64,000 nucleotides of DNA from an uncultured Pseudomonadota bacterium (GTDB lineage Bacteria; Myxococcota_A; Polyangia; Fen-1088). Below the pieces are notes generated by a model. That model did no database searches. It saw nothing but the letters and a program-made list of their open reading frames with translations, and had not been told where the DNA came from. The translations under genes were made by a program, and so were the position numbers. Where the stretch lies: NCBI GenBank assembly GCA_963847705.1, contig CAWKBC010000027.1, positions 352,001 to 416,000 of the forward strand. Reading direction: 5' to 3'. Shown here piece by piece: positions 29,746-43,269 of this stretch (positions within the stretch are counted from its first letter, which is position 1; each line of letters starts with the position of its first letter).

Positions 29746-30324
29746 TCACCCCTTGCGGGCGTTATAGACCGGGCGGCCGCTGGCGGCGAACCGGCGGAAG
29801 CCCTCGAGCGCCTCGGCGCGGAGGAGGCCGTCGCGGACGGCAATGCCGCGGCGGCGGAGCTCGTCGGGCCAGTGGGGATGGAGGGGGCCCTCGTCGAAGC
29901 CGGTCAACGCCTCCATCTCGGGCCCGCTGCCGGCGATGACCACGCTGCGGACGCCCGACCAGCAGATCGCGCCACAGCACATCGCGCAGGGGGCCCAGTT
30001 GACGACGATCTGGCAAGCGGGTTGGCCGGGACCGCCCAGATCGTGCCCGCCGATCGCCTGCTGCGCGAGCGACAGCGCCATCACCTCGGCGTGCGCCGAC
30101 GAGCAGCGCCCCGGGACGACGCGGTTGACGCCGATCGACACCACGCGACCGGTCGCCTCCTCGAACACCGCCGCCGCAAACGGCCCGCCGGTGTCGCGGT
30201 CGAAGTTCGTGCGCGCCAGCTCGATGACCCAGCGCATGCGCGCCTCGTCGTCGAGCTGCGCGGGCGCAGCAGCGAGTGACTCACTCGCCCAGTCGGGGAG
30301 GCTCAGCTCGAACCGTGTTGCCAC
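29746..30324 (-). CDS. Zn-dependent nucleoside/nucleobase deaminase (GuaD/TadA-like), probable guanine deaminase
   Basis: GGPFAA, HAEV, PCAMCCGAI; divergent from the purine ABC operon. Confidence 0.8.
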   Translation of the reverse strand: MATRFELSLPDWASESLAAAPAQLDDEARMRWVIELARTNFDRDTGGPFAAAVFEEATGRVVSIGVNRVVPGRCSSAHAEVMALSLAQQAIGGHDLGGPGQPACQIVVNWAPCAMCCGAICWSGVRSVVIAGSGPEMEALTGFDEGPLHPHWPDELRRRGIAVRDGLLRAEALEGFRRFAASGRPVYNARKG

Positions 30325-30431: not shown

Positions 30432-32024
30432 ATGGGTAGAGCCGCAGCCGCCGACGATCACCTGGCGGGGATGTCCCCAGCACCGAGGCTCGCGCTGACA
30501 AATGTCAGCAAACGGTATCCAGGAGTTCAAGCCAACGATCGCATCAGCCTGACGGTCATGCCGGGCGAGATCCACGCCGTGCTCGGGGAGAACGGCGCCG
30601 GCAAGTCGACGCTGATGAAGATCATCTACGGCGCGGTGCGCCCCGACGCCGGCAGCCTGGCCTGGAACGGCGCGCCGGTGGCCATCCACAATCCGCGTCA
30701 GGCGCGCGCGCTGGGGATCGCCATGGTGTTCCAGCACTTCGCGCTGTTCGAGACGCTCACGGTCGCCGAGAACGTCTGGCTCGGCATCGACAAGAAGATG
30801 ACCCGCGCCGAGGTGGGGCGCGAGGTCGAGCGGGTGTCGGGCCTCTATGGCCTCGAGCTCGAGGCCGGGCGGATGGTGTCGAGCCTCTCGGTGGGGGAGC
30901 GCCAGCGGGTGGAGATCCTGCGCGCGCTCCTCACCAAACCGCAGCTGCTGATCCTCGACGAGCCGACCGCCGTGCTCACGCCGCAGATGGCGGAGCGGCT
31001 GTTCGTCACCTTGCGCCAGCTGGCCGGCGAAGGCTGTTCGATCGTCTACATCAGTCACAAGCTCGACGAGGTGCGCGCGCTCTGCACGCGCTGCACCGTC
31101 CTGCGCGCCGGGCGTGCCGTGGGCGCGGTCGATCCGCGCCTCGAGACCAACCGCAGCCTGTCGGAGCTGATGCTCGGCGCCGCACCGCCGGCGCCTCCGG
31201 TGCGCGCCGCGCGGATCGGCGAAGCCGCGCTGGAGGTGCGCGGCCTGTCATTGCCGTCGATCGACGAGCTGGGGGTGGCGCTCAAGGAGATCGGGCTTTC
31301 GGTCAGGAGCGGAGAGATCCTCGGCGTGGCTGGGGTCTCCGGCAACGGGCAGGCCGAGCTGCTCGCCGCTCTTTCGGGCGAGGACCGGCGCGCGCCCGCC
31401 GGCAGCGTCCGCCTGTTCGGTCGCGACGTGGCGTCCGCGGCGCCGCGGACGCGCCGCGCGCTGGGGCTCCACTTCATCCCCGAAGAACGGATCGGCCGCG
31501 GCTCGGTCCCGGGCCTGGCGCTGGCCGACAACACGCTCCTCACCCGGCGCGAGCCGGTGGGGAAGGGGGGGTGGTTGCACCGCGGCCGCGCCCGGCGGCT
31601 GGCCGCCAGCTTGATCGCGCGCTTCGGCGTCAGCGCGCGCGGGCCCGACGCGATCGCCGGGAGCCTCTCGGGCGGAAACCTGCAGAAGTTCATCGTCGGC
31701 CGCGAGGTGGGCGCCACGCCCAAGGTGCTGGTGGTGGGGCAGCCGACCTGGGGGCTCGATGTGGGCGCGGCGGCGCTGATTCGCCGCGAGATCGCCGCGC
31801 TCTGCGACGCGGGGGGCGCCGCGCTGATCGTCAGCGAGGATCTGGAAGAGCTGTTCGAGCTCTGCTCGGATCTGGTGGTGATCGCGCGTGGGCGATTGTC
31901 ACCGCGGATCGCGGTTCGCGACGCCAACCCCGCGCTCATCGGTCAGTGGATGAGCGGCCTGTTCGCCGAGACGGCGGGGCCGGAGGTGGCACCGATGGCG
32001 GCCGGCGTGGAGGCCCATGCTTAG
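30432..32024 (+). CDS. Purine/nucleoside ABC transporter ATP-binding protein (double NBD)
   Basis: GENGAGKST, ILDEPT, LSGGNLQK; start may be 30471. Confidence 0.92.
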   Translation: MGRAAAADDHLAGMSPAPRLALTNVSKRYPGVQANDRISLTVMPGEIHAVLGENGAGKSTLMKIIYGAVRPDAGSLAWNGAPVAIHNPRQARALGIAMVFQHFALFETLTVAENVWLGIDKKMTRAEVGREVERVSGLYGLELEAGRMVSSLSVGERQRVEILRALLTKPQLLILDEPTAVLTPQMAERLFVTLRQLAGEGCSIVYISHKLDEVRALCTRCTVLRAGRAVGAVDPRLETNRSLSELMLGAAPPAPPVRAARIGEAALEVRGLSLPSIDELGVALKEIGLSVRSGEILGVAGVSGNGQAELLAALSGEDRRAPAGSVRLFGRDVASAAPRTRRALGLHFIPEERIGRGSVPGLALADNTLLTRREPVGKGGWLHRGRARRLAASLIARFGVSARGPDAIAGSLSGGNLQKFIVGREVGATPKVLVVGQPTWGLDVGAAALIRREIAALCDAGGAALIVSEDLEELFELCSDLVVIARGRLSPRIAVRDANPALIGQWMSGLFAETAGPEVAPMAAGVEAHA

Positions 32025-33111
32025 GTTGGTGCTTCGCTCGCCACCGTCACGGGCGCTGACGCTGGCGGCGCCCTTCGTGGCGCTGGCCCTGACCGTGCTC
32101 TTCGGCGCGGTCCTCTTCCTGGCCCTCGGCCATCCGCCCGGGCAGGCGCTGGCGCTGTTCTTCCTCGAGCCGCTGCGCGGCGCTGATGCCTGGAGCGAGC
32201 TGGCGGTCAAGGCGACGCCGCTCGCGCTGGTGGCGCTGGGGCTGGCCATCTGTTTCCGGGCCAACGTCTGGAACATCGGCGCCGAAGGGCAATTCATCGT
32301 CGGGGCGTTGGGGGCGACGGCGGTGGCGATGCGGGCGCATGAAGGAACGCACGCCGCGGTCATCTTGCCCGCCATCGCGCTGGCCGGGATCGCGGCGGGC
32401 GCGGCCTGGGCGGCGGTGGTGGCGTTCCTGCGCGATCGCTGGAACGCCAACGAGATCCTGGTGAGCCTGATGCTGGTCTACGTGGCCGACATGCTCCTCG
32501 GGTATCTGACCTACGGCCCCTGGAAGGATCCCGACGGCTACAACTTTCCACAGACGATCAGCTTCCTGCCCGTCACGCAGGTCCCGCTGCTGGCCGAGGG
32601 GCACCGCGCCCACGTCGGTCTGTTCGTGGCGTTGTTGGTGGCGCTGGTGGCCTGGCTCTTCCTGTTTCGAACCTATGGCGGCTTCCAGCTGACGGTGGGC
32701 GGTCAGGCGCCGCGGGCGGCGCGGTACGCCGGCTTCTCGGCGCGCCGCTCGCTCTGGACCGCTCTCCTCTGTTCGGGCGGCCTGGCCGGGTTGGCCGGCG
32801 CGCTGGAGGTGACCGGCCCGCTCGGGCAGCTGACGCCGCACCTGCCGGTCGGCTACGGGTTCACGGGGATCATCGTGGCGTTCGTCGGGCGCCTGCACCC
32901 GCTCGGCATCCTGCTCTCGTCGATCCTGATGAGCATGCTCTACATCGGCGGCGAGCTGGCGCAGTCGCGCCTCGGCCTGCCGCAGGCGCTCTCGGGCGTG
33001 TTTCAGGGGCTCTTGCTGTTCACGCTGCTCGCCTGCGACGCCCTGGCGAGCTACCGGGTGCTGCGCGTGACGCCGCAATCTCGGGGCGAGAAAACGGTGG
33101 TGGCGGCCTAG
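32017..33111 (+). CDS. Purine/nucleoside ABC permease
   Basis: WNIGAEGQ, NEILVSLML, GYGFTGI. Confidence 0.92.
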   Translation: MLRLVLRSPPSRALTLAAPFVALALTVLFGAVLFLALGHPPGQALALFFLEPLRGADAWSELAVKATPLALVALGLAICFRANVWNIGAEGQFIVGALGATAVAMRAHEGTHAAVILPAIALAGIAAGAAWAAVVAFLRDRWNANEILVSLMLVYVADMLLGYLTYGPWKDPDGYNFPQTISFLPVTQVPLLAEGHRAHVGLFVALLVALVAWLFLFRTYGGFQLTVGGQAPRAARYAGFSARRSLWTALLCSGGLAGLAGALEVTGPLGQLTPHLPVGYGFTGIIVAFVGRLHPLGILLSSILMSMLYIGGELAQSRLGLPQALSGVFQGLLLFTLLACDALASYRVLRVTPQSRGEKTVVAA

Positions 33112-34037
33112 TGGGCGGTTTGGCGCTCATGCTGGCGGCCTCCGTCAACGCGGGGACGGTGCTGGCGCTGGCGGGCCTCGGCCTGCTGGTCAACGAACGG
33201 GCCGGCGTCCTGAACCTGGGCGCCGAGGGGATGATGCTGATGGGCGCGCTGGCCGGCTACGCGACGGCGCTGCACCTCTCGGGCGGGTGGATGTTCCTGG
33301 CCTATCTCGCCGCCGCGGGCGCGGGGGCGGCGATGGCGGCGCTGTTCGGCTGGCTGGCCATCGGGATCGGCACCAACCAGTACGCGACCGGGTTGGCGCT
33401 CAGCCTGTTCGGCGTCGGCTTCTCCGCCTTCGCCGGCGCGTCGTTCGTCGACAAGCAGCTCCCCGAGCGTGGCCGCGACGGGCTCCCCTGGCTGCGCGAT
33501 CTGCCGGTGGTGGGGCCGGCGCTGTTCGGCTACCACCCGCTCGTCTACGCGACCCTGCTCCTCGCCGCGGCGCTCGCCTGGTTCTTCTTCCGGTCGCGCG
33601 CGGGGCTCCTGCTTCGGGCCGTGGGCGAATCGCCCGAGTCGGCGCACGCGCTCGGGCACCGCGTGCGCGCGATCCGGTTGGCGGCGGTGATCTTCGGCGG
33701 GGCCATGTGCGGCCTGGCCGGGGCCTACGTCTCGCTCGCCTACACGCACCTGTGGGTCGAGAACCTGATCGCCGGTCGCGGGTGGATCGCGCTGGCGCTG
33801 ACCACCTTCGCGACCTGGCGGCCGGCGCGAATCATCCTCGGCGCCTACCTCTTCGGTGGGCTCACCATGTTGCAGTTCCACCTGCAGGAGCGGGGCGTCC
33901 AGATCGAGAGCCACCTCCTCGGCATGATCCCCTACCTCGCCACTGTCGTGGTGCTGGTGCTGATCTCGCGCCGCGCCGCCTGGATTCGCCACAACATGCC
34001 CGCCTCGCTGGGCCGCATCTTTCGACCGGGCACCTGA
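33111..34037 (+). CDS. Purine/nucleoside ABC permease
   Basis: ERAGVLNLGAEG, RAVGESP, GRGWIALAL. Confidence 0.92.
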   Translation: MGGLALMLAASVNAGTVLALAGLGLLVNERAGVLNLGAEGMMLMGALAGYATALHLSGGWMFLAYLAAAGAGAAMAALFGWLAIGIGTNQYATGLALSLFGVGFSAFAGASFVDKQLPERGRDGLPWLRDLPVVGPALFGYHPLVYATLLLAAALAWFFFRSRAGLLLRAVGESPESAHALGHRVRAIRLAAVIFGGAMCGLAGAYVSLAYTHLWVENLIAGRGWIALALTTFATWRPARIILGAYLFGGLTMLQFHLQERGVQIESHLLGMIPYLATVVVLVLISRRAAWIRHNMPASLGRIFRPGT

Positions 34038-34091: not shown

Positions 34092-35195
34092 ATGCACAAG
34101 CGACGTTCCCGACCTTCACTGTTCTTTGGTCTGCTGACTCTGACGCTCGCGCTTGCCGTCGTCGGGTACGGCGGCGCCGAGGCGGCCGGGCCGCTCAAGA
34201 TCGGGTTCGCCTACGTCGGCCCGGTCGGCGACGCCGGTTGGACCTTCGCGCACGACAAGGCCCGCAAGGCGGTGGAGGCGGAGTTCGGCCCCAAGGTCAC
34301 CACGATCTTCGTGGAGAACGTCCCCGAGGCGGCCGACGCCGAGCGGGTGCTGCGCGACATGGTCAAGCAGGGCTGCGGCCTCATCTTCGGCACGACCTTC
34401 GGCTACATGGGGCCGATGTTGAAGGTGGCGGCGACGGCGCCGACCGTGAAGTTCGAGCACGCCACGGGATACAAGACCGCGCCCAACCTGAGCACCTATG
34501 ACTCGCGCACCTATGAGGGGGCCTACATGGCCGGCGTGATCGCGGGCGGGATGACCAAGACCAACACGCTCGGCGTGGTGGCGTCGATCCCCATCCCCGA
34601 GGTCATTCGCAACATCGACTCCTTCACCCTGGGCGCCCAGAGCGTCAACCCCAAGGTCACCACCCGGGTGGTCTGGGTCAACAAGTGGTTCGACCCGCCC
34701 AAGGAGAGCGAGGGGGCGCTGGCGCTCATGAACGACGGCGCCGACGTGCTGATGCAGAACACCGACTCGTCGGCGGTCCTGCAGGCGGCCGAGAAGGCCG
34801 GCAAGCACGCCTTCGGCTGGGACTCCGACATGGCCAAGTACGGCCCCAAGGCCCACCTGGGGTCGGCGGTGATCAACTGGGCGCCCTACTACAAGAAGTC
34901 GGTCAAGGACGTCCTCGACGGGACCTGGAAGTCCGGGCAGACCTGGTGGGGGGTCAAGGAAGGGGCGATCGATCTGGTCTCCGTCTCGCCGGCGGTGCCG
35001 GCGGCGCTCAAGAAGAAGCTCGAGACCGTCAAGGCCGGCCTCAAGAGCGGCACCTACGCGATCTGGAAGGGGCCGATCGTCGACCAGGACGGCAAGACCG
35101 TGCTCAAGGCGGGCGAGACGGCCGACGACAAGTTCCTGCACGGGATCAACTTCTACGTGACCGGCGTGCAGGGAAAGTTGCCCAGCTCCAAATAG
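34092..35195 (+). CDS. BMP-family ABC substrate-binding protein
   Basis: Signal peptide; YVGPVGDAGWTFAHD, GTTFGY, WFDPPKE, QNTDS. Confidence 0.93.
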   Translation: MHKRRSRPSLFFGLLTLTLALAVVGYGGAEAAGPLKIGFAYVGPVGDAGWTFAHDKARKAVEAEFGPKVTTIFVENVPEAADAERVLRDMVKQGCGLIFGTTFGYMGPMLKVAATAPTVKFEHATGYKTAPNLSTYDSRTYEGAYMAGVIAGGMTKTNTLGVVASIPIPEVIRNIDSFTLGAQSVNPKVTTRVVWVNKWFDPPKESEGALALMNDGADVLMQNTDSSAVLQAAEKAGKHAFGWDSDMAKYGPKAHLGSAVINWAPYYKKSVKDVLDGTWKSGQTWWGVKEGAIDLVSVSPAVPAALKKKLETVKAGLKSGTYAIWKGPIVDQDGKTVLKAGETADDKFLHGINFYVTGVQGKLPSSK

Positions 35196-35211: not shown

Positions 35212-36654
35212 GTGAACTCTGGCGACGCGCTCGACCGACACGCCGCGCGCGTGCGCCAGGAGCTGGAGCTCCTCGACTACCCGCGGCGGCCCTGGATGCC
35301 CAACCGGATGTCCAACCTGGGCGGCGCGGGCGGGGCGTCGGGTCAGGAGGTCGTCGACGTCCTGATCGTCGGCGCGGGGCAGGGCGGTCTGACGGCGGCG
35401 TTCGGCCTTTCGCGCGAGCGCGTCTCCAACCTGCTGGTCGTCGACGAGAACCCGCTCGACCGCGCCGGGCCCTGGCTCAACTTCGCGCGCATGCGCACGC
35501 TGCGCACGCCCAAGTACGTCACGGGGCCGGATCTTGGCGTCCCCAGCCTCACGCCACGCGCCTGGTACGAGGCGCAGCACGGCGCCGGCAGCTGGGAGGC
35601 GCTGGGGCTCATCCCCAAGGAGACCTGGGCGGCGTACCTGGCCTGGTACCGGCAGACGCTGGAGATTCCGGTGCGCCCAGATACGCGCGTGGGTGCGTTG
35701 CGCTGGAACGCGGCCGCGGCGGCCTGGGACGTGCCGGTCACCGACGCGCGCGGCGGCGGTGGCGGGGAGACGTTGCGCGCGCGGCGGGTCGTGCTGGCGA
35801 CGGGGATCGACGGGTCGGGGCAGTGGGAGATCCCCGCGATGATCCGCGACGGCCTGCCGCCGCGGCTCTACGCGCACACCCGCCAGGAGATCGACTTCGC
35901 GGCGCTGGCCGGCAAGCGCGTGGCGGTGCTGGGGGCGGGCGCCTCCGCCTTCGACAACGCCGCGACCGCGCTCGAGCGGGGCGCGGGCGAGGTGGTCCTC
36001 TGCTTTCGCCGCCCCAGCCTGGTCAACGTCAACGCCTACCGCTGGGCCGAGTTCGTGGGGTTCCTGCGCCACCTCGGCGATCTCCCCGACGTCGACAAGT
36101 GGCGCTTCATCCGGCAGATCGTGCGGATGGGACAGCTTCCTCCGGCAGACACGGTCAAGCGCGCCCGCGGGCACGCCGGCTTCCGGTTGCACGCGGGCTG
36201 CGCCTGGAGCGCCGTCGAGGCGCGCGGCGACACCGTCGTCATCCGCTCCGCCGGCGGCGAGACCCACGAGGTCGACTTCGTCATCGTCGGCACCGGCTTC
36301 GTCACCGATCTCGCCCGGCGGCCGGAGCTGCGCGAGGTGGAGCCGCACATCGCCCGCTGGTCGGATCGTTTTTCACCGCCTCCCGGAGAGGTCTCCGACG
36401 ATCTGCTGCGCCACCCGTACCTGGGCCCCGGGTTCGAGCACACCGAGAAGGTGCCGGGCGCGGCGCCCTACCTGAAGTACCTCTACAACTACACCTTCGG
36501 TGGCCTCTTGAGTCTGGGCTTCGGTGGCGCCAGCATCTCGGGGATGAAGTATTCAATCCCGCGCCTGGTGGGGGGCATCACCGGCTCGTTCTTCGTCGAG
36601 GATCGCGACACGCACTTCGACAGTCTGCGCACCTTCGCCGAGACGGAGTTCTAG
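35212..36654 (+). CDS. hpyO: FAD-dependent urate hydroxylase (HpyO-like)
   Basis: GAGQGG, GPWLNFARMRTLRTPK, ATGIDGSG, GAGASAFDNA, HPYLG; sits before allB-alc-uraD-uraH. Confidence 0.75.
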   Translation: MNSGDALDRHAARVRQELELLDYPRRPWMPNRMSNLGGAGGASGQEVVDVLIVGAGQGGLTAAFGLSRERVSNLLVVDENPLDRAGPWLNFARMRTLRTPKYVTGPDLGVPSLTPRAWYEAQHGAGSWEALGLIPKETWAAYLAWYRQTLEIPVRPDTRVGALRWNAAAAAWDVPVTDARGGGGGETLRARRVVLATGIDGSGQWEIPAMIRDGLPPRLYAHTRQEIDFAALAGKRVAVLGAGASAFDNAATALERGAGEVVLCFRRPSLVNVNAYRWAEFVGFLRHLGDLPDVDKWRFIRQIVRMGQLPPADTVKRARGHAGFRLHAGCAWSAVEARGDTVVIRSAGGETHEVDFVIVGTGFVTDLARRPELREVEPHIARWSDRFSPPPGEVSDDLLRHPYLGPGFEHTEKVPGAAPYLKYLYNYTFGGLLSLGFGGASISGMKYSIPRLVGGITGSFFVEDRDTHFDSLRTFAETEF

Positions 36655-38072
36655 TGGCCCGCACCATCGGCGCGCGCGCCCACCTGGCCAAGCTGACCGC
36701 CCACCCGGGCCTCTGGGGGCTCCGCAGCCGGCGCATCGTCGGACCGGACGGGCGCATCCGTCCCGGCACCGTGCTGATCGAGGAGGGGCGCATCCGCGCG
36801 CTCGTCTCCCGGCCGGCGACCGCCACGGTGCCGCCGGACATCCCGGTGGAGGACCTCGGCACGCGGGTGATCGCGCCGGGGCTGGTCGACTGCCACGTCC
36901 ACGTCAACGAGCCGGGACGCACCGACTGGGAGGGGTTCGCCACCGCGACCCGGGCGGCGGCCGCGGGCGGCGTCACCACGCTGGTCGACATGCCGCTCAA
37001 CTGCCTCCCGGTCACCACGACGCGCGCCGCCCTCGAGGAGAAGCGGCGCGCCGCCAGCGGGCAGCTTCACGTCGACGTCGGTTTTTGGGGGGGCGTGATC
37101 CCGGGGAACGCGGGCGAGCTGGCCGAGCTCGCCGCGGGCGGCGCGCTCGGCTGCAAGGCCTTCCTCGTTCACTCGGGCATCGAAGAGTTTCCCAACGCCA
37201 CCGAGGCCGATCTGCGCGCGGCCATGCCGGTGCTGCGCGACGCGGGGCTGCCGCTCCTGGTGCACGCCGAGCTCGATCTGGGCGATGTCCCCGCAACTGG
37301 CGGTGAGGACCCGCGCGCCTATGCGGGCTACCTGCGCTCGCGGCCGGCCGCCTGGGAGGACGCGGCGATCGCGCTCCTCATCAAGCTCGCCCGCGAGACC
37401 GGTTGCGCCGTCCACGTCGTCCACCTCTCCTCGGCGGCCTCGGTGAACCAGATCGCCCGCGCGAAGGCCGACGGGCTGCACTTCACCGCAGAGACCTGCC
37501 CGCACTACCTCTGTCTCGAGGCGGAGTCGGTGCCCGACGGCGCGACCGAGTACAAGTGCGCGCCGCCGATCCGCGACCACGAGAATCGTGAGGCGCTGTG
37601 GCGGGGGCTGAAGGACGGCGTCATCGATTTCGTGGTGACCGATCACAGCCCCTGCACGCCGGCCCTGAAAGGGCGGGAGCGGGGAGACTTCGCGAAGGCC
37701 TGGGGCGGGATCGCCTCGCTGCAGCTGGGGTTGCCGGCGGTCTGGACGGAAGCGACCCGGCGCGGCCACAGCCTGAGCGACATCTCCGCCTGGATGAGCG
37801 CGCGTCCCGCGGCGCTGGCGGGGCTCGGGCGGCGCAAAGGGCAGATCGCCCCCGGCTTCGACGCCGATCTGGTGGTCTGGGATCCCGAGGCAGAGATCGA
37901 GGTCGACGCCGAGCATCTGCAGTTTCGCCACAAGGTCTCGCCTTATCTGGGGCAGCACCTCAAGGGGCGCGTCGAGGCGACGTTTCTCCGGGGCCGACTG
38001 GCCTACGACGGCAGCGGTCATCCCGCAGGCCCGGTGGGCGCGCCGATCCTGGGCCGGGACACCCGCGCATGA
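36654..38072 (+). CDS. allB: Allantoinase
   Basis: DCHVHVNEPGRTDWEGF, DMPLN, HAE, HLSS, ETCPHYL, KCAPPIR, TDHSP. Confidence 0.93.
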   Translation: MARTIGARAHLAKLTAHPGLWGLRSRRIVGPDGRIRPGTVLIEEGRIRALVSRPATATVPPDIPVEDLGTRVIAPGLVDCHVHVNEPGRTDWEGFATATRAAAAGGVTTLVDMPLNCLPVTTTRAALEEKRRAASGQLHVDVGFWGGVIPGNAGELAELAAGGALGCKAFLVHSGIEEFPNATEADLRAAMPVLRDAGLPLLVHAELDLGDVPATGGEDPRAYAGYLRSRPAAWEDAAIALLIKLARETGCAVHVVHLSSAASVNQIARAKADGLHFTAETCPHYLCLEAESVPDGATEYKCAPPIRDHENREALWRGLKDGVIDFVVTDHSPCTPALKGRERGDFAKAWGGIASLQLGLPAVWTEATRRGHSLSDISAWMSARPAALAGLGRRKGQIAPGFDADLVVWDPEAEIEVDAEHLQFRHKVSPYLGQHLKGRVEATFLRGRLAYDGSGHPAGPVGAPILGRDTRA

Positions 38073-39148
38073 GCTCCTCGTCCAGCTCGCCCGCCGCCAC
38101 GTTCTCCGGCCTGGTCGATCTGGCCGCCGCTGGGCTGGGCGGGCGGGCGCTCGGCGCCAGCGACGATTTCTTCGCCGGCGCGGACAATCTGCTGCAACCG
38201 GAGCGCGCGATCTTCATCGCGGGGAAATTCACCGAACGCGGCAAATGGATGGACGGCTGGGAGAGCCGGCGCCGGCGCACGAGCGGGCGCGAACTCGGCC
38301 ACGACTGGTGTGTCCTGGCGCTGGGCGCCCCGGGCGAGGTCGTCGGCTTCGACATCGACACCCAGCACTTCGTGGGGAACCACCCGCCCTTCGCCTCGGT
38401 CGAAGGTCTGTGGGCGCCCGACGCCGCGGAGGGGGCCGCCGCGCTGCTGGCGCACCCAGGCTGGGTCGCGTTGCTCGAGCAGTCCCCCCTGCGCCCCGAC
38501 GCGCAGAACCTGTTCGCGGCGCTCGGGCGTGGGCCGGTGAGCCACCTGCGGCTGAACATCTTCCCCGACGGCGGCGTGGCCCGCTTTCGCGCGTTCGGAC
38601 GGGTTCACCCGCGCTGGGATGCGGCGCCCGCGCTCGACGAGGAGACGCGCGCTCAGGTGGCCCCCGAGCTGCGCGATCTGGCGGCGCTGGCCAACGGTGG
38701 GCTGACGCTGGCCTGCTCCGACGCGCACTTCGGCCCGATGAACAACCTGCTCCTGCCGGGGCGCCCCGCCGACATGGGCGGCGGCTGGGAGACGCGGCGC
38801 CGGCGCGGCCCCGGATACGACTGGATCCTCGTCAAGCTGGGCGCGCGCGGCGCGCCCGCCGTCGTCGAGGTCGACACCCGGCACTTCAAGGGGAACTTTC
38901 CCGATCGCTGCTCGCTGGAGGCGATCGACGCGCCCGCCGGCGCGCGCATCACCGACCTGGTCGGCTCGGACGCCTGGCGGCCGCTGGTGCCGGAGGCGAA
39001 GTTGCGGGCCGACGCGCGTCACTTCTTCACGGTGGCGGGCGCGCGCTCGGCCGGTGGGGCGGACCCCTCGGTGACCCACGTGCGCCTCAACATCTTTCCC
39101 GACGGCGGCGTGGCGCGGCTGCGTGTCTGGGGGCGACCGGATGTCTGA
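38069..39148 (+). CDS. alc: Allantoicase
   Basis: Duplicated domain: SDDFF, MDGWESRRRR / GWETRRRR, RLNIFPDGGVAR twice. Confidence 0.95.
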   Translation: MSSSSSSPAATFSGLVDLAAAGLGGRALGASDDFFAGADNLLQPERAIFIAGKFTERGKWMDGWESRRRRTSGRELGHDWCVLALGAPGEVVGFDIDTQHFVGNHPPFASVEGLWAPDAAEGAAALLAHPGWVALLEQSPLRPDAQNLFAALGRGPVSHLRLNIFPDGGVARFRAFGRVHPRWDAAPALDEETRAQVAPELRDLAALANGGLTLACSDAHFGPMNNLLLPGRPADMGGGWETRRRRGPGYDWILVKLGARGAPAVVEVDTRHFKGNFPDRCSLEAIDAPAGARITDLVGSDAWRPLVPEAKLRADARHFFTVAGARSAGGADPSVTHVRLNIFPDGGVARLRVWGRPDV

Positions 39149-39635
39149 CCCCCACACGGCGCTCAACGCGCTGCCGGCCGACGAGGCCCGCGCCGCGCTG
39201 GCCCGCTGCTGCGGCTCGGCGCGCTGGGTCGCCGGCATGATGGCGCGGCGCCCCTGGGCGACGGCGGCCGCGCTCTTCGCCGACGCGGAGGCCACCTGGG
39301 CCGGGCTCGCGCGCGACGATGTTCTGGAGGCGTTCGCCCACCACCCGCGCATCGGCGCGCGCGCCGAGCAAACGGACGATGCCTGGGCACGCCAGGAGCA
39401 GGCGCGGGTCGCCGACGCCGACGGTGAAACGCGGCGCGCGCTGCTCGAGGCCAACGAGCAGTACCTGCAGCGCTTCGGCTACATCTTCATCGTGTGCGCC
39501 ACGGGGAAGAGCGCCGGCGAGATGCTGGGCCTGCTCGGGGCACGCCTGGGCAACGCTCCGGAGCGCGAGCTGGCGATCGCCGCCGGCGAACAGGCGCGCA
39601 TCACCCGATTGCGTCTGGAGAAGCTCGCCGCATGA
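39141..39635 (+). CDS. uraD: OHCU decarboxylase
   Basis: CCGSARWV, AFAHHPRIG, QEQ, RFGYIFIVCATG, EQARIT. Confidence 0.93.
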   Translation: MSDPHTALNALPADEARAALARCCGSARWVAGMMARRPWATAAALFADAEATWAGLARDDVLEAFAHHPRIGARAEQTDDAWARQEQARVADADGETRRALLEANEQYLQRFGYIFIVCATGKSAGEMLGLLGARLGNAPERELAIAAGEQARITRLRLEKLAA

Positions 39636-39970
39636 ATTCACTCACCTCGCATGTCCTGGACGTCGCTCTCGGTCAGCCGGCGCGCGGCGTGACGCTGCGC
39701 CTGGAGGTGCTGGAAGGGACGAGCTGGCGATCCCTCGGCGCCGGCGTCACCGACGCCGACGGCCGCCCCGGCGACCTGCTGGCCGGCGCCCCGCTCCAGG
39801 CGCGCACCTACCGCCTGACGTTCGAGACCGGAGCCTACTTCGCCGCCACCGGGCGGCGCTCGTTCTACCCGCGGGTCGAGGTCACCTTCGACGTGGCGAC
39901 GCCGGCCGAGCATCATCACGTTCCGCTGCTCCTGTCGCCGTTCGGCTACTCGACCTACCGCGGGAGCTGA
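39632..39970 (+). CDS. uraH: 5-hydroxyisourate hydrolase (transthyretin-like)
   Basis: SHVLD, TDADGR, HHHVPLLLSPFGYSTYRGS C-terminus. Confidence 0.96.
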   Translation: MNSLTSHVLDVALGQPARGVTLRLEVLEGTSWRSLGAGVTDADGRPGDLLAGAPLQARTYRLTFETGAYFAATGRRSFYPRVEVTFDVATPAEHHHVPLLLSPFGYSTYRGS

Positions 39971-39983
39971 GGAGAGCCATCCG

Positions 39984-41429
39984 ATGACAGCCGACAGCCA
40001 GGACGATTTCGGACCGCACCTCGCGGCGCTGGGGCAGGCGAACCGGGACTGGGCGCGCTTGTACCCAGGCGATCCGCCCGCCCGACAGCCGATCCACACG
40101 GTCTACGGCGGTGCCCACCTCTACAAGGCCGAGACCACGCGGCGGCTGGGCGAGCTGGCGCTGCGCCAGATCTCCCGCTACGCCCCCGACGCCGTGGCGC
40201 TCGCCCGCGGCGTCGGCTTCGTGCCCGCGGCGACGTTCGAGGCGCCGGGCGCGCCCGACGCTGCCGCGTGGCGCGCTGCCTTCGAAAGCGACGGGGCGGC
40301 TCTGCGCAAAGAGAGCCCGCAGGCCTGGCTCGCCTTCACGGTGCACGACCGCGTGCTCGCCAAGCTGCGCCGCGAGGCCGTCGAGGACTTCCGCATCGAC
40401 TTCGAGGACGGCTACGGCGCGCGCCCCGACGCCGACGAGGACGCCACCGCGGTGGCCGCCGCGGGCGAGGTGGCGCGCGGGCTCGTCGAGGGACTGCTGC
40501 CGCCGTTCATCGGCATCCGGATCAAGTCGTTCGGCGCCGAGTGGCAGGCGCGCGGGGCGCGCACGCTGGAGATCTTCGTCGATGCGCTGCTCACCGCGAC
40601 GGGCGGACGACTCCCCGACAACTTCGTCATCACGCTGCCCAAGGTCACCATCGCGGAGCAGCCGCGCACGCTGGTCCGGCTCTGCGAGCGCCTCGAAGCC
40701 CGCCACGGTCTGCCCGCCGGGGCCCTGCGGATCGAGCTGATGATCGAGACGACGCAGGCGCTGCTCGGGCCCGACGGCCGCTCGCCGCTGCCGGCGTTCC
40801 TGGAAGCCTGCGAGGGGCGCTGCCGGGGGGCGCACTTCGGGACCTACGATTTCACCGCGTCCTGCAACATCACCGCCGCCTACCAGAGCATGGACCACCC
40901 CTGGTGCGACCTCGCCAAGGGGATGATGATGCTGGCCTACGCCGGGACCGGCCTCTTCCTCAGCGACGGCGCCACCAACGTCATGCCGGTGGGACCGCAC
41001 CGCGGCGAGACGCTCACCGCCGACCAGGAGCAGCAGAACCGCGCCGTCGTCCACGCTGCATGGAGGCTGGCCCACCGGCACATCCGCCATTCGCTGGAGG
41101 GCGGCTTCTATCAGGGGTGGGATCTGCACCCGGGGCAGCTGCCGGTCCGCTACGCCACCTGCTTTGGGTTTTTTCTGGAGGGCTTCGCCGCGGCCGCCGA
41201 GCGGCTCCGCAACTTCGTCGAGAAGGCGGCCCAGGCCACCCTGGTCGGCGACGTCTTCGACGACGCAGCGACGGGGCAGGGGCTGCTCAACTACTTCCTG
41301 CGCGCGCTCAACTCGGGGGCCATCGAGCCGGGCGACCTCGGTCAGACCGGCCTCGAGGCCGACGAGGTGGCGCTGCGCTCGTTCGCCAAGATCCTGGCCG
41401 CGCGCCGCGCCCGGCTGCGGACCGGATGA
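39984..41429 (+). CDS. HpcH/CitE aldolase-lyase-fold protein (DUF6986-like)
   Basis: RQPIHTVYGGAH, EDFRIDFEDGYG, TLPKV, ELMIET, HFGTYD, LSDGATN, YQGWDLHP; AGGAG RBS. Confidence 0.75.
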   Translation: MTADSQDDFGPHLAALGQANRDWARLYPGDPPARQPIHTVYGGAHLYKAETTRRLGELALRQISRYAPDAVALARGVGFVPAATFEAPGAPDAAAWRAAFESDGAALRKESPQAWLAFTVHDRVLAKLRREAVEDFRIDFEDGYGARPDADEDATAVAAAGEVARGLVEGLLPPFIGIRIKSFGAEWQARGARTLEIFVDALLTATGGRLPDNFVITLPKVTIAEQPRTLVRLCERLEARHGLPAGALRIELMIETTQALLGPDGRSPLPAFLEACEGRCRGAHFGTYDFTASCNITAAYQSMDHPWCDLAKGMMMLAYAGTGLFLSDGATNVMPVGPHRGETLTADQEQQNRAVVHAAWRLAHRHIRHSLEGGFYQGWDLHPGQLPVRYATCFGFFLEGFAAAAERLRNFVEKAAQATLVGDVFDDAATGQGLLNYFLRALNSGAIEPGDLGQTGLEADEVALRSFAKILAARRARLRTG

Positions 41430-41508
41430 GTCGTCGAAATTTACACGATGTTCACGAGCCAGAAACGGCGGCGTCGCCAGTGATGTGCTCAGATTATGTC
41501 GAGGGACA

Positions 41509-42630
41509 ATGTCAGCGTCGTTCGATGTTTCTCCGGCGCTTCGGTTGACGCCGCTCGAGGGTGGTGGCCGCGAAGTGGACTTCGGGGCCGACGCCGGCCA
41601 CCTCGATCTCGAGCGGCTCGACGAGGCCGGCTTCGCCGCGCTGGAACGGGCGGTCCTGACCCACTCGATCGTGGTGGTCCGCGGGCAGGAGCGGCTGTCG
41701 CCCCGGGCGCAGTTCGAGCTCACCCGCCGCTTCGACCCGCGGGTCACCAGCTACGGCCACGGGAACCGCCCCGACATCATGAAGCAGAGCGTGCTCGTGC
41801 AGGACCTGGTGTCGATCCCCGCTTGGCCCCAGGTCAAGCTGCTCGGTCACGGCCGCGTCACCGAGCACGAGGGGCTGCCGCCGGTCGACCTTCACCATCC
41901 CTCTCACCGCAGCTTCCACCACACCCCGCTGACCGACGAGCAGGAGGCGCGCGGCCTGACCCGCTTTTACCGCTGGCACATCGACGCCGCGCTCTACGAG
42001 CTGCACCCGCCCAAGGTCACCACGCTGCTGGCGATCAAGGTTCCGGAGGCGCGTCGCCAGACGGTGGTCTACGACGACGGCAGCGGCGACACGCTGGACG
42101 TCACGCTGGGGACGACCGCGTTCGTCTCGGGCGCGCGGGCCTTCGAGCTCCTGTCGCCCGCGCAGCGCGCCTGGGCGCTGAAAACGAAGGCCCGCTACGC
42201 GCCGCACCCCTACGTCTGGATCCGCAACGCGCGCGCCCGCTCGAACGGCCTCGGCCTCGTCTCCGAGGGGCGCGAGCTCTCGCGGGCGGAGCTGCCACCC
42301 TACGACGAGGCGAAGGTGATGACGCTGCCGCTCGTCTGGAAGAACCCGCTCACCGGCCGCCAGGCGCTGCAGCTGCACGCCTACTGCGTCGAGGATCTGC
42401 TGGTGGACGGCCAGCCGATCGGCGATCTCGAGACCTGCCGGGGCCTGCTCTACGAGCTGATGCGCCCGGCGATCGCGCCCGCCCGCGTCTACGCGCACGC
42501 CTGGCAGGACGGCGATCTGGTGATCTTTCACAACCGCGCCGTCTGGCACAGCGTCGTCGGATCGATGCGGCCGGACGATCTGCGCGTCTATCACCAGTGC
42601 AACCTGGCCGCCAGCGAGCCGGTCGATTAG
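41509..42630 (+). CDS. xanA: Fe(II)/alpha-ketoglutarate-dependent xanthine dioxygenase (fungal XanA-like, TauD fold)
   Basis: LSPRAQFELTRRFDP, TRFYRWHIDAALY, RQTVVYDDGSG, GTTAFVSG, YAPHPY, WKNP, FHNRAVWHSVVG, QCNLAA match fungal XanA blocks as recalled; GAGG RBS. Confidence 0.85.
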   Translation: MSASFDVSPALRLTPLEGGGREVDFGADAGHLDLERLDEAGFAALERAVLTHSIVVVRGQERLSPRAQFELTRRFDPRVTSYGHGNRPDIMKQSVLVQDLVSIPAWPQVKLLGHGRVTEHEGLPPVDLHHPSHRSFHHTPLTDEQEARGLTRFYRWHIDAALYELHPPKVTTLLAIKVPEARRQTVVYDDGSGDTLDVTLGTTAFVSGARAFELLSPAQRAWALKTKARYAPHPYVWIRNARARSNGLGLVSEGRELSRAELPPYDEAKVMTLPLVWKNPLTGRQALQLHAYCVEDLLVDGQPIGDLETCRGLLYELMRPAIAPARVYAHAWQDGDLVIFHNRAVWHSVVGSMRPDDLRVYHQCNLAASEPVD

Positions 42631-42855
42631 TTCGGGACCCTAAGCGGGTCGCGCGCCCCCGCGAAGAGGTCGCGCCGGCGAAGCCGCCTCTCCCTCAGGC
42701 GATCGATTCGAGCGAGTTGGATCCAAAAAGAAACTGTTCCGTTCCGAATGCTTGAGCCATCCGGAAGGGCGCGCGTTTTCACTTGTTCCAGCGTCCCCGC
42801 GGGGGTTACTCAGGAGAAGACGGGGACGACCGGGGCAGATGCGGAAAGGAGAGCC

Positions 42856-43269
42856 ATGGAGACGAGCGACAACGAGAGGGTGGTTCGTGAGATCTACGAA
42901 GCGATCGGGCGGGGGGACGTCGCCGAGGTGCTCGCGCGCATGAAGGAGGATGCGCGGTGGGACTTCAACGTCGGGCCGAGCGATGTTCCCTGGCACGCGC
43001 CGGCGACGGGGCCGGAGGAGATCCAAAAATTCCTGGGCGGATTCATCGAGAACGTGACGCTCACGGCCTTCGAGCCGCGCCGGTTCATCGCCTCGGGCGA
43101 CGACGTCGTCGTTGATGTCCACCTCGCCTACACCGTCAAGCGGACCGGGAAGCTCGTCGATCTCGACCAGCTCCACTGGTGGTCGCTGGCCGACTGGCGC
43201 GTGACGCGGCTCCGACACTTCGAGGACACCGCGCAAGTCATGTCGGCCTGGAGCGACGGCTCTGGCTGA
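42856..43269 (+). CDS. SnoaL/NTF2-like protein
   Basis: VVREIYEAIGRGD...DARW...GDDVVV...HFEDT; AGGAG RBS. Confidence 0.85.
   Translation: METSDNERVVREIYEAIGRGDVAEVLARMKEDARWDFNVGPSDVPWHAPATGPEEIQKFLGGFIENVTLTAFEPRRFIASGDDVVVDVHLAYTVKRTGKLVDLDQLHWWSLADWRVTRLRHFEDTAQVMSAWSDGSG

Follow-up and report, generated by a model that had tools for sequence, protein, structure and literature searches.

Can a bacterium oxidise xanthine with an enzyme of the XanA type, an Fe(II)/2-oxoglutarate dioxygenase? In fungi, both the chemistry and the family are already known, and the accessible part of one report describes activity on xanthine but not on hypoxanthine (PMC5746545). The part of a 2014 review that was available to us describes XanA as uniquely fungal apart from Phytophthora, states that no possible bacterial homologue was present in NCBI, and leaves the origin of the enzyme open between duplication and transfer from a non-fungal source (PMC5611559). 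A term search of a 2026 review of urate catabolism returned neither XanA nor the word dioxygenase (PMC13751858). The question was raised by a window of 64,000 nucleotides of DNA from an uncultured bacterium of the Polyangia, in which a sequence-only reading had proposed a functional bacterial XanA. In our literature search, in which subscription journals were largely outside the scope, no report of a bacterial XanA was found.

The gene and its surroundings

The gene for the candidate protein, P0001, lies in a run of purine genes, with the following features in and around it.

29746..30324, minus strand: NE0047 (CDA)-type guanine deaminase, predicted guanine to xanthine (E 7e-50 to the PDB 2G84/4HRQ sequence)
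30432..32024, plus strand: ABC transporter ATPase (PF00005)
32017..33111, plus strand: ABC permease 1 (PF02653)
33111..34037, plus strand: ABC permease 2 (PF02653)
34092..35195, plus strand: BMP/PnrA-type substrate-binding protein, putatively for purine/nucleoside uptake (PF02608)
35212..36654, plus strand: FAD/NAD(P)H monooxygenase, putative HpyO-type urate hydroxylase, urate to HIU (Pyr_redox_2/3, NAD_binding_9)
36654..38072, plus strand: allantoinase AllB (TIGR03178 over cut-off)
38069..39148, plus strand: allantoicase (TIGR02961 over cut-off)
39141..39635, plus strand: OHCU decarboxylase UraD (TIGR03180 over cut-off)
39632..39970, plus strand: HIU hydrolase UraH (TIGR02962 over cut-off)
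39984..41429, plus strand: DUF6986 protein, near-constant cluster member (PF22484)
41501..41506, plus strand: Shine-Dalgarno-like GAGGGA (from the sequence)
41509..42630, plus strand: XanA-type Fe(II)/2-oxoglutarate dioxygenase P0001, predicted xanthine to urate (PF02668, 54% identity to P0474, residues, model)
42629..42705, no strand: dispersed intergenic REP-like repeat (62 blastn matches in its own genome, self included)

The P0001 reading frame was found to run from the ATG at 41509 to the TAG at 42630 (373 aa), free of internal stops. A GAGG (41501-41504) precedes the ATG by only 4 nt, which is a short spacing, and the start is supported by the alignments of close relatives, which begin at residue 1. 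Codon use resembled that of the host, with a CAI of 0.80 (83rd percentile among 2362 long ORFs of the genome) and a GC3 of 0.925, and dN/dS, by an approximate count, was 0.09-0.24 against all six relatives tested. The gene follows the DUF6986 gene after a gap of 79 nt and is the last plus-strand gene of the purine run. Thus, the features from which the sequence-only reading had started, namely a 373-aa TauD-fold frame with host-like codons and a ribosome-binding site, an HxD...H triad (H157-x-D159 ... H347) and a position at the end of the purine run, were all recovered, the fold by both a PF02668 match and a structural model. A promoter scan returned no sites; terminator-like sites were at chance level, with none in 41429-42700, and a repeat scan of 41300-43000 returned short families only, also at chance level. 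In a search for expression, the one matching RNA data set shared 0.05 of the sequence words and consisted of contigs only. The 42629-42705 repeat starts right after the P0001 stop codon, and contig depth spikes there.

The gene lies in the middle of a 943-kb contig, within a draft genome of 6.1 Mb that has a uniform GC near 0.70, is 84.7% complete and has an estimated contamination of 6%. Of 21 other GTDB genomes, 8 share the junction of the DUF6986 and P0001 genes, which is also spanned by relatives' contigs in two independent public runs (X1, 41313-41736; X3, 41255-41766). This recurrence, together with the bridging contigs, indicates that the assembly is sound; the chimera against which the sequence-only reading had cautioned is not present. 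An assembly artefact or fungal contamination could be argued from the draft state of the genome and its contamination estimate, yet we give this explanation next to no credence: the gene has the GC and the codons of its host far from any contig end, 8 other genomes share its junction, and it is also present in Sorangium sp. So ce726, whose chromosome is complete, so that independent genomes already refute this explanation.

Relationship of P0001 to fungal XanA

Fungal XanA was represented by the proteins of Aspergillus desertorum (P0474, 370 aa) and A. mulundensis (P0479) instead of that of A. nidulans. P0001 and P0474 were identical at 198 of 366 positions (54%; pairwise E 2e-142), and identity to Dikarya XanA ranged from 45 to 56%. 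Among representatives of 50%-identity clusters, the best full-length match was a Colletotrichum protein (50% identical), the neighbours of which bear names such as 'alpha-ketoglutarate-dependent xanthine dioxygenase xan-1' and 'C576.01c-like'. By contrast, solved TauD-family chains matched P0001 weakly (4 matches, best E 1e-6), P. putida TauD gave an E of 1.6e-5, and a plasmid search returned only 7 records, all of them TauDs at 24-29% identity. P0001 is thus kin to XanA and not an ordinary bacterial TauD, as had been proposed. Carriage of a P0001-type gene on plasmids, considered separately, was rejected on the same 7 records. All six sequence blocks that had been quoted as XanA-like occur in both P0001 and P0474; the motif WHSVVG, quoted alongside them, is absent from P0474, which reads LHSVVG.

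PF02668 (TauD) was the only Pfam family to match P0001 (E 1e-29; 104 bits versus a cut-off of 27), and no NCBIfam profile reached its cut-off. The AlphaFold model (pLDDT 90.4) has a TauD fold and was matched to TauD by Foldseek with a probability of 1.00 (1OS7, E 3e-17; E. coli TauD, 19% identity); a sequence search of the PDB returned no structure of the XanA family. The fold and the facial triad are common to P0001 and the TauD/TfdA/AtsK/ScoE proteins of PF02668, which differ by their 15-20% identity in fold matches and by being about 90 residues shorter (254-296 versus 373). Taurine dioxygenase proper does not describe P0001, given an identity of 19-20%, a purine context and no orthologue-level similarity. 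Automatic JGI names among the 120 best protein matches were mixed, with many 'taurine dioxygenase' entries and 24 'xanthine dioxygenase' entries, and such automatic labels do not amount to characterisation. The latter label was rejected as evidence, as it is also borne by an outgroup protein (P0166) without the Gln-Cys-Asn motif described below. In the ESM Atlas the clusters nearest P0001 were mostly of Ascomycota, which we regard as a lead only.

The residues that we take to have been studied in XanA are Q101, K122, E137, D138, H149, D151, H340, R352, Q356, C357 and N358. Of these, His149, Asp151 and His340 are presumably the Fe ligands and Arg352 the 2-oxoglutarate-binding residue, with Gln101, Gln356, Cys357 and Asn358 presumably forming the substrate pocket and Lys122, Glu137 and Asp138 also studied. 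All 11 were found at their positions in P0474, and their equivalents in P0001 are Q108, H129, E144, Q145, H157, D159, H347, R359, Q363, C364 and N365. The Fe triad and the 2-oxoglutarate arginine (H157, D159, H347 and R359) were kept in 178 of 178 bacterial sequences. So was the Gln-Cys-Asn motif, which was found in only 2 of 13 fungal-type paralogues and in none of 13 outgroup proteins; the Q101 equivalent was present in 174 of the 178, and all four pocket residues in a single one of the 13 paralogues. Retention of this motif matters because XanA paralogues are described, in the accessible part of the 2014 review, as keeping the iron site and losing the substrate residues (PMC5611559). The K122 position holds H129 in P0001 and arginine in 84 of the 178 bacterial sequences, and the D138 position holds Q145; both positions vary among fungal orthologues too, and of 120 Sordariomycete-type proteins, for instance, 108 have arginine at position 122.

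Across 151 fungal orthologues, 158 alignment columns were near-invariant. P0001 kept 119 of these, compared to 122 for a basidiomycete protein (P0124), 64-94 for the 13 fungal paralogues and 47-69 for the 13 outgroup proteins. Nearly all bacterial members had changes at 27 of the 158 columns, including a loop at 90-99 and F354-R355 adjoining the Gln-Cys-Asn motif, and some of these columns lie beside the predicted substrate pocket, which would count against full equivalence to fungal XanA. Thus, P0001 resembles XanA of A. nidulans, Xan1 of S. pombe and Xan-1 of N. crassa in its similarity to the Aspergillus orthologue, its similar length and the matching positions of triad, arginine and Gln-Cys-Asn. 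It differs in its Polyangia host, its operon-like cluster with a candidate flavin urate hydroxylase, its membership of a separate bacterial clade, and its histidine at the K122 position and changed columns.

A distinct TauD-class clade related to XanA (P0154, P0166, P0186, P0196, P0207, P0213 and relatives), at about 30-35% identity to P0001, was also noted. Its proteins have a W-R-D motif and are without Gln-Cys-Asn, and in some members a further domain of roughly 300 aa follows at the C-terminus.

Ureide linkage and the xanthine step

The window cluster appears, from its gene content, to encode a route from guanine to glyoxylate save for the step from xanthine to urate. The guanine deaminase gene, with a predicted start codon, is divergent from the purine run; 4HRQ, one of its PDB matches, is the N. 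europaea guanine deaminase NE0047, according to the accessible part of its description (PMC9081823). An amidohydrolase-type guanine deaminase was considered as another source of xanthine and rejected, with none over cut-off. The window's own genome had no match to XdhB, and P0001 is its single TauD-family gene. The putative HpyO-type assignment of the monooxygenase rests on domain type and context; a FAD-dependent HpyO of the kind characterised in Xanthomonas is described in the part of PMC4562309 that was available. The enzyme adjoins allB or uraH in most loci, and since uricase was not found in its own genome, where the PuuD domain is matched only in part, it is likely the urate hydroxylase. 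The DUF6986 protein had no PDB sequence match at E 1. It accompanies the ureide genes whether or not xdh or XanA-like genes are present, and is a candidate for a step missing at ureidoglycolate or glyoxylate.

When 185,579 prokaryote species were scanned with a pattern of exact P0001 peptides, by which divergent members can be missed, 21 loci (GTDB genomes) were returned. The titles of 14 of these name Polyangia, Polyangiales, Polyangiaceae, Myxococcales or Sorangium and the other 7 bear vague proteobacterial labels; the carriers include the complete Sorangium sp. So ce726 chromosome (protein P0050). The 120 best protein matches were 70-95% identical, and the 4 that name an organism name Polyangia, Polyangiaceae or Sorangium. 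A XanA-like gene was detected in 2 of 300 other genomes sampled from the class and in none of 400 sampled from elsewhere in the phylum, and the bacterial clade is shallow, with members at least 62% identical to P0001. Since the carriers are kin, their counts are not independent, and since the window's genome is incomplete and carriers are mostly MAGs, gene absences are soft. At one locus (L021:1-2489), in a bin of 2.7 Mb with the title beta proteobacterium, a DUF6986-XanA stretch is frameshifted and matches 2.5 kb of the window at 80% identity, which either misbinning or a recent transfer would explain.

In 14 of the 21 GTDB loci the XanA-like gene adjoins the ureide cluster, and four arrangements were seen. 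It follows DUF6986 in 8 loci, stands head-to-head with the monooxygenase in 4, and in one locus each follows the BMP gene or lies tail-to-tail with DUF6986. The monooxygenase is present in 19 of 21 carriers compared to 22 of 301 class genomes, and the 7 unclustered carriers all have allantoinase and, in 6 cases, the monooxygenase. Among 80 metagenome loci, 25 were bacterial-type; cluster genes were seen in 13 of these and xdhB in none, many of the loci being short.

Orthologue-level XdhB was not detected in any of the 14 clustered genomes (best 232 bits versus a cut-off of 849.5). It was detected in 4 of the 21 carriers (two over cut-off, two in pieces), all among the 7 unclustered; in these, xdhB and the flavin monooxygenase are 1.5-2.5 kb apart, and the site of the XanA-like gene is a different one. 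Six sampled genomes of the window's family, its own included, have the monooxygenase. In three of them (G130, G205 and G240, the last frameshifted) a XanA-like gene was not found and the monooxygenase has xdh genes head-to-head with it, and in the other three (G000, G178 and G059) a XanA-like gene is present and xdhB is not, so that clusters of the family hold one or the other, three each, and none holds both. Pfam confirmed xdhC and xdhA in two loci (L057 and L059). The head-to-head slot of the xdh genes is the slot of the XanA-like gene in L009, L011, L012 and L016. These displacement counts carry no p-value, the genomes being mostly incomplete and related. The exchange is not a strict replacement, as 7 of 21 carriers are unclustered and 4 of these have XdhB; nor does an empty xanthine step need a filler, as both xdhB and a XanA-like gene went undetected in 12 of the 22 class genomes that carry the monooxygenase. 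These twelve (G011, G034, G067, G104, G118, G122, G180, G197, G212, G222, G262 and G271; loci L060-L062, L065, L067, L069-L073, L075 and L076), in most of which ureide genes lie close by, may draw on urate alone or have a different xanthine oxidase.

The bacterial XdhABC enzyme (TIGR02965) catalyses the reaction predicted for P0001 and occupies the same slot beside monooxygenase-allB-alc-uraD-uraH in sister genomes; its fold is unrelated and it takes three genes compared to one. XdhABC needs Moco, FAD and Fe-S and oxidises hypoxanthine too. Loss of Moco as the reason for the swap was rejected, with MoaC in 19 of 21 carriers. The window's own genome has MoeA, no MoaA over cut-off and no MoaC, the latter two probably missing through incompleteness. 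As a further Moco-independent bacterial route to urate we take the two-component hypoxanthine/xanthine oxygenase HpxDE of Klebsiella, presumably clustered with a flavin urate hydroxylase, as P0001 may be; its Rieske/reductase chemistry would differ from that of a 2-oxoglutarate dioxygenase, and we assume the two not to be homologous.

By sequence and tree P0001 belongs to the XanA family, and its metal and substrate residues are conserved, its ureide linkage recurs and its clusters are of the either-or kind. On these grounds we consider it highly probable that P0001 is a bacterial XanA-family enzyme that hydroxylates xanthine to urate, standing in for the Mo-dependent xanthine dehydrogenase in Polyangia. 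The bacterial XanA of the sequence-only reading is thus upheld, as a predicted function, by family placement, gene context and the swap with xdh. An enzyme derived from XanA that acts mainly on another purine-type substrate feeding the same cluster, such as methylxanthines or an oxidised purine, is unlikely in our judgement. The retention of the gene in 4 genomes that also have XdhB would fit it, as would the consistent bacterial substitutions near the predicted pocket and the fungal XanA paralogues with changed specificity described in the accessible part of PMC5611559. Against it, Gln-Cys-Asn and Q108 are kept when most paralogues have lost them, the gene fills the xdh slot and shares no cluster with xdhB in the loci examined, and a deaminase predicted to make xanthine sits beside it. 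We hold it very improbable that P0001 is an unrelated TauD-class enzyme of sulfonate, xenobiotic or secondary metabolism with an incidental purine neighbourhood. The lack of linkage in 7 of 21 carriers and the mixed automatic names point that way, but the similarity to solved TauD/TfdA chains is slight, as is the identity in fold matches, linkage survives four rearrangements, and every unlinked carrier has allantoinase.

A fungal, Malassezia-like contig (L107:97-15710) carries a XanA 74% identical to that of Malassezia pachydermatis (P0457) within a purine cluster, on which a literature search found no report. The cluster includes a polysaccharide-deacetylase-fold protein (a putative PuuE-like allantoinase), an allantoicase with a ureidoglycolate lyase domain, an Asp/Glu/hydantoin racemase, HIUase, two nucleobase permeases, an amidohydrolase and a catalase-like ORF, as well as a flavin monooxygenase 34% identical to that of the window (35212-36654), which may represent a fungal case of a urate hydroxylase of bacterial type. 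The clustering of this XanA with a kindred monooxygenase and HIUase was counted in favour of P0001 as XanA.

In the route that we propose, purines would enter by the ABC transporter and the NE0047-type deaminase would make xanthine. P0001 would hold Fe by H157, D159 and H347 and 2-oxoglutarate by R359, would pass through an Fe(IV)-oxo species, as TauD-class enzymes typically do, and would oxidise C8 of a xanthine positioned near Q363-C364-N365, with use of Fe(II), O2 and 2-oxoglutarate. The flavin monooxygenase, UraH, UraD, AllB and allantoicase would then carry urate on to ureidoglycolate and urea. If this is true, bacteria have another way to oxidise xanthine, and the 'taurine dioxygenase' annotations of the clade would be corrected. 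For assay and crystallography, a XanA-type protein from bacteria is available in Sorangium sp. So ce726, a cultured host.

Origin of the bacterial clade

The Polyangia clade represents the missing bacterial homologue and makes the question of the origin of XanA testable. A tree was built from 39 rows (9 bacterial, 3 sister sequences, 22 fungal-type or other eukaryotic and 5 of the 13 outgroup proteins), with L021 and most fragments left out and proteins of Mucoromycota, S. pombe and oomycetes missing; its groups were set after quick trees had been seen, and its root is a long, taxonomically unplaced branch. In the careful IQ-TREE run, the bacteria formed one clade (100/100), sister to P0130, P0450 and P0460 (98/97). 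Bacteria and sisters joined Dikarya XanA at an unstarred 89/85, inside yeast-like, Gonapodya and paralogue rows, and P0001 fell in a 27-row group (90/85), to which one divergent Phialemonium protein also belongs and a six-paralogue clade does not. The bacteria again paired with the sister sequences in a quicker tree that took in 35 fragments. By AU test, trees with the bacteria outside all eukaryotic rows were rejected (p 0.0104), and fungal monophyly without the bacteria and their sister rows was rejected more weakly (p 0.0325).

In four of the sister sequences the similarity breaks off into unrelated sequence past a shared motif, and in one of them it picks up again some 50 residues on, as would be expected if they were, as is probable, intron-bearing eukaryotic genes. 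An N-terminal and a C-terminal fragment also come from contigs of equal length. A metagenome scan with an alignment of the sister sequences returned Polyangia-type and fungal loci and none of the sister contigs. Eight metagenomic and apparently intron-split sequences (P0130, P0450, P0451, P0460, P0191, P0176, P0177 and P0160) group with the bacterial clade and not with Dikarya; an unrecognised eukaryotic XanA lineage is possible.

The sequence-only reading had left the choice between gene transfer involving fungi and a family that began in bacteria. The evidence here favours transfer into bacteria, the present trees pointing to bacteria as recipient and not donor, and a bacterial origin is disfavoured by the first of the AU tests. 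A eukaryotic donor is likewise favoured, but a fungal one is not established, as the nearest sister consists of probable intron-bearing eukaryotic genes outside Dikarya XanA. Transfer from a eukaryote to Polyangia is the best reading of the origin and, on the trees, a reasonably probable one. That the Polyangia clade was instead the ancient source of the fungal family, with transfer from bacterium to eukaryote, seems improbable to us. The bacterial clade does lie beside Dikarya XanA and not inside it, with an unstarred joining node, and the outgroup is distant and unplaced and several eukaryotic groups are missing from the tree; against this stand the AU results, the weaker one included, the shallowness of the clade and its rarity among the species and genomes scanned. 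On the favoured transfer from a eukaryote, Polyangia would have gained the gene a single time, from a microbial eukaryote, with patchy spread and loss thereafter. The full scenario, to which we give an even chance, is that Polyangia took the xanthine dioxygenase once from a microbial eukaryote, of a non-Dikarya lineage in which XanA is not yet known, and that it swaps with the three-gene Mo enzyme in one cluster slot, giving a Mo-free route from guanine to ureidoglycolate. If true, this would be a clear eukaryote-to-bacterium transfer of a catabolic enzyme with non-orthologous displacement.

XanA of Phytophthora, for which a fungus-to-oomycete transfer is proposed in the accessible part of PMC5611559, is like P0001 a XanA-family gene outside fungi that is explained by horizontal transfer. 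As that part describes it, the Phytophthora protein is about 70% identical and nests in Pezizomycotina; by contrast, P0001 crosses domains, has the lower identity to Dikarya noted above (45-56%) and nests outside Dikarya XanA. P0134, a member of the XanA family listed as belonging to the alga Polytomella parva, grouped with yeast-like sequences (100/97), a placement that suggests contamination or transfer.
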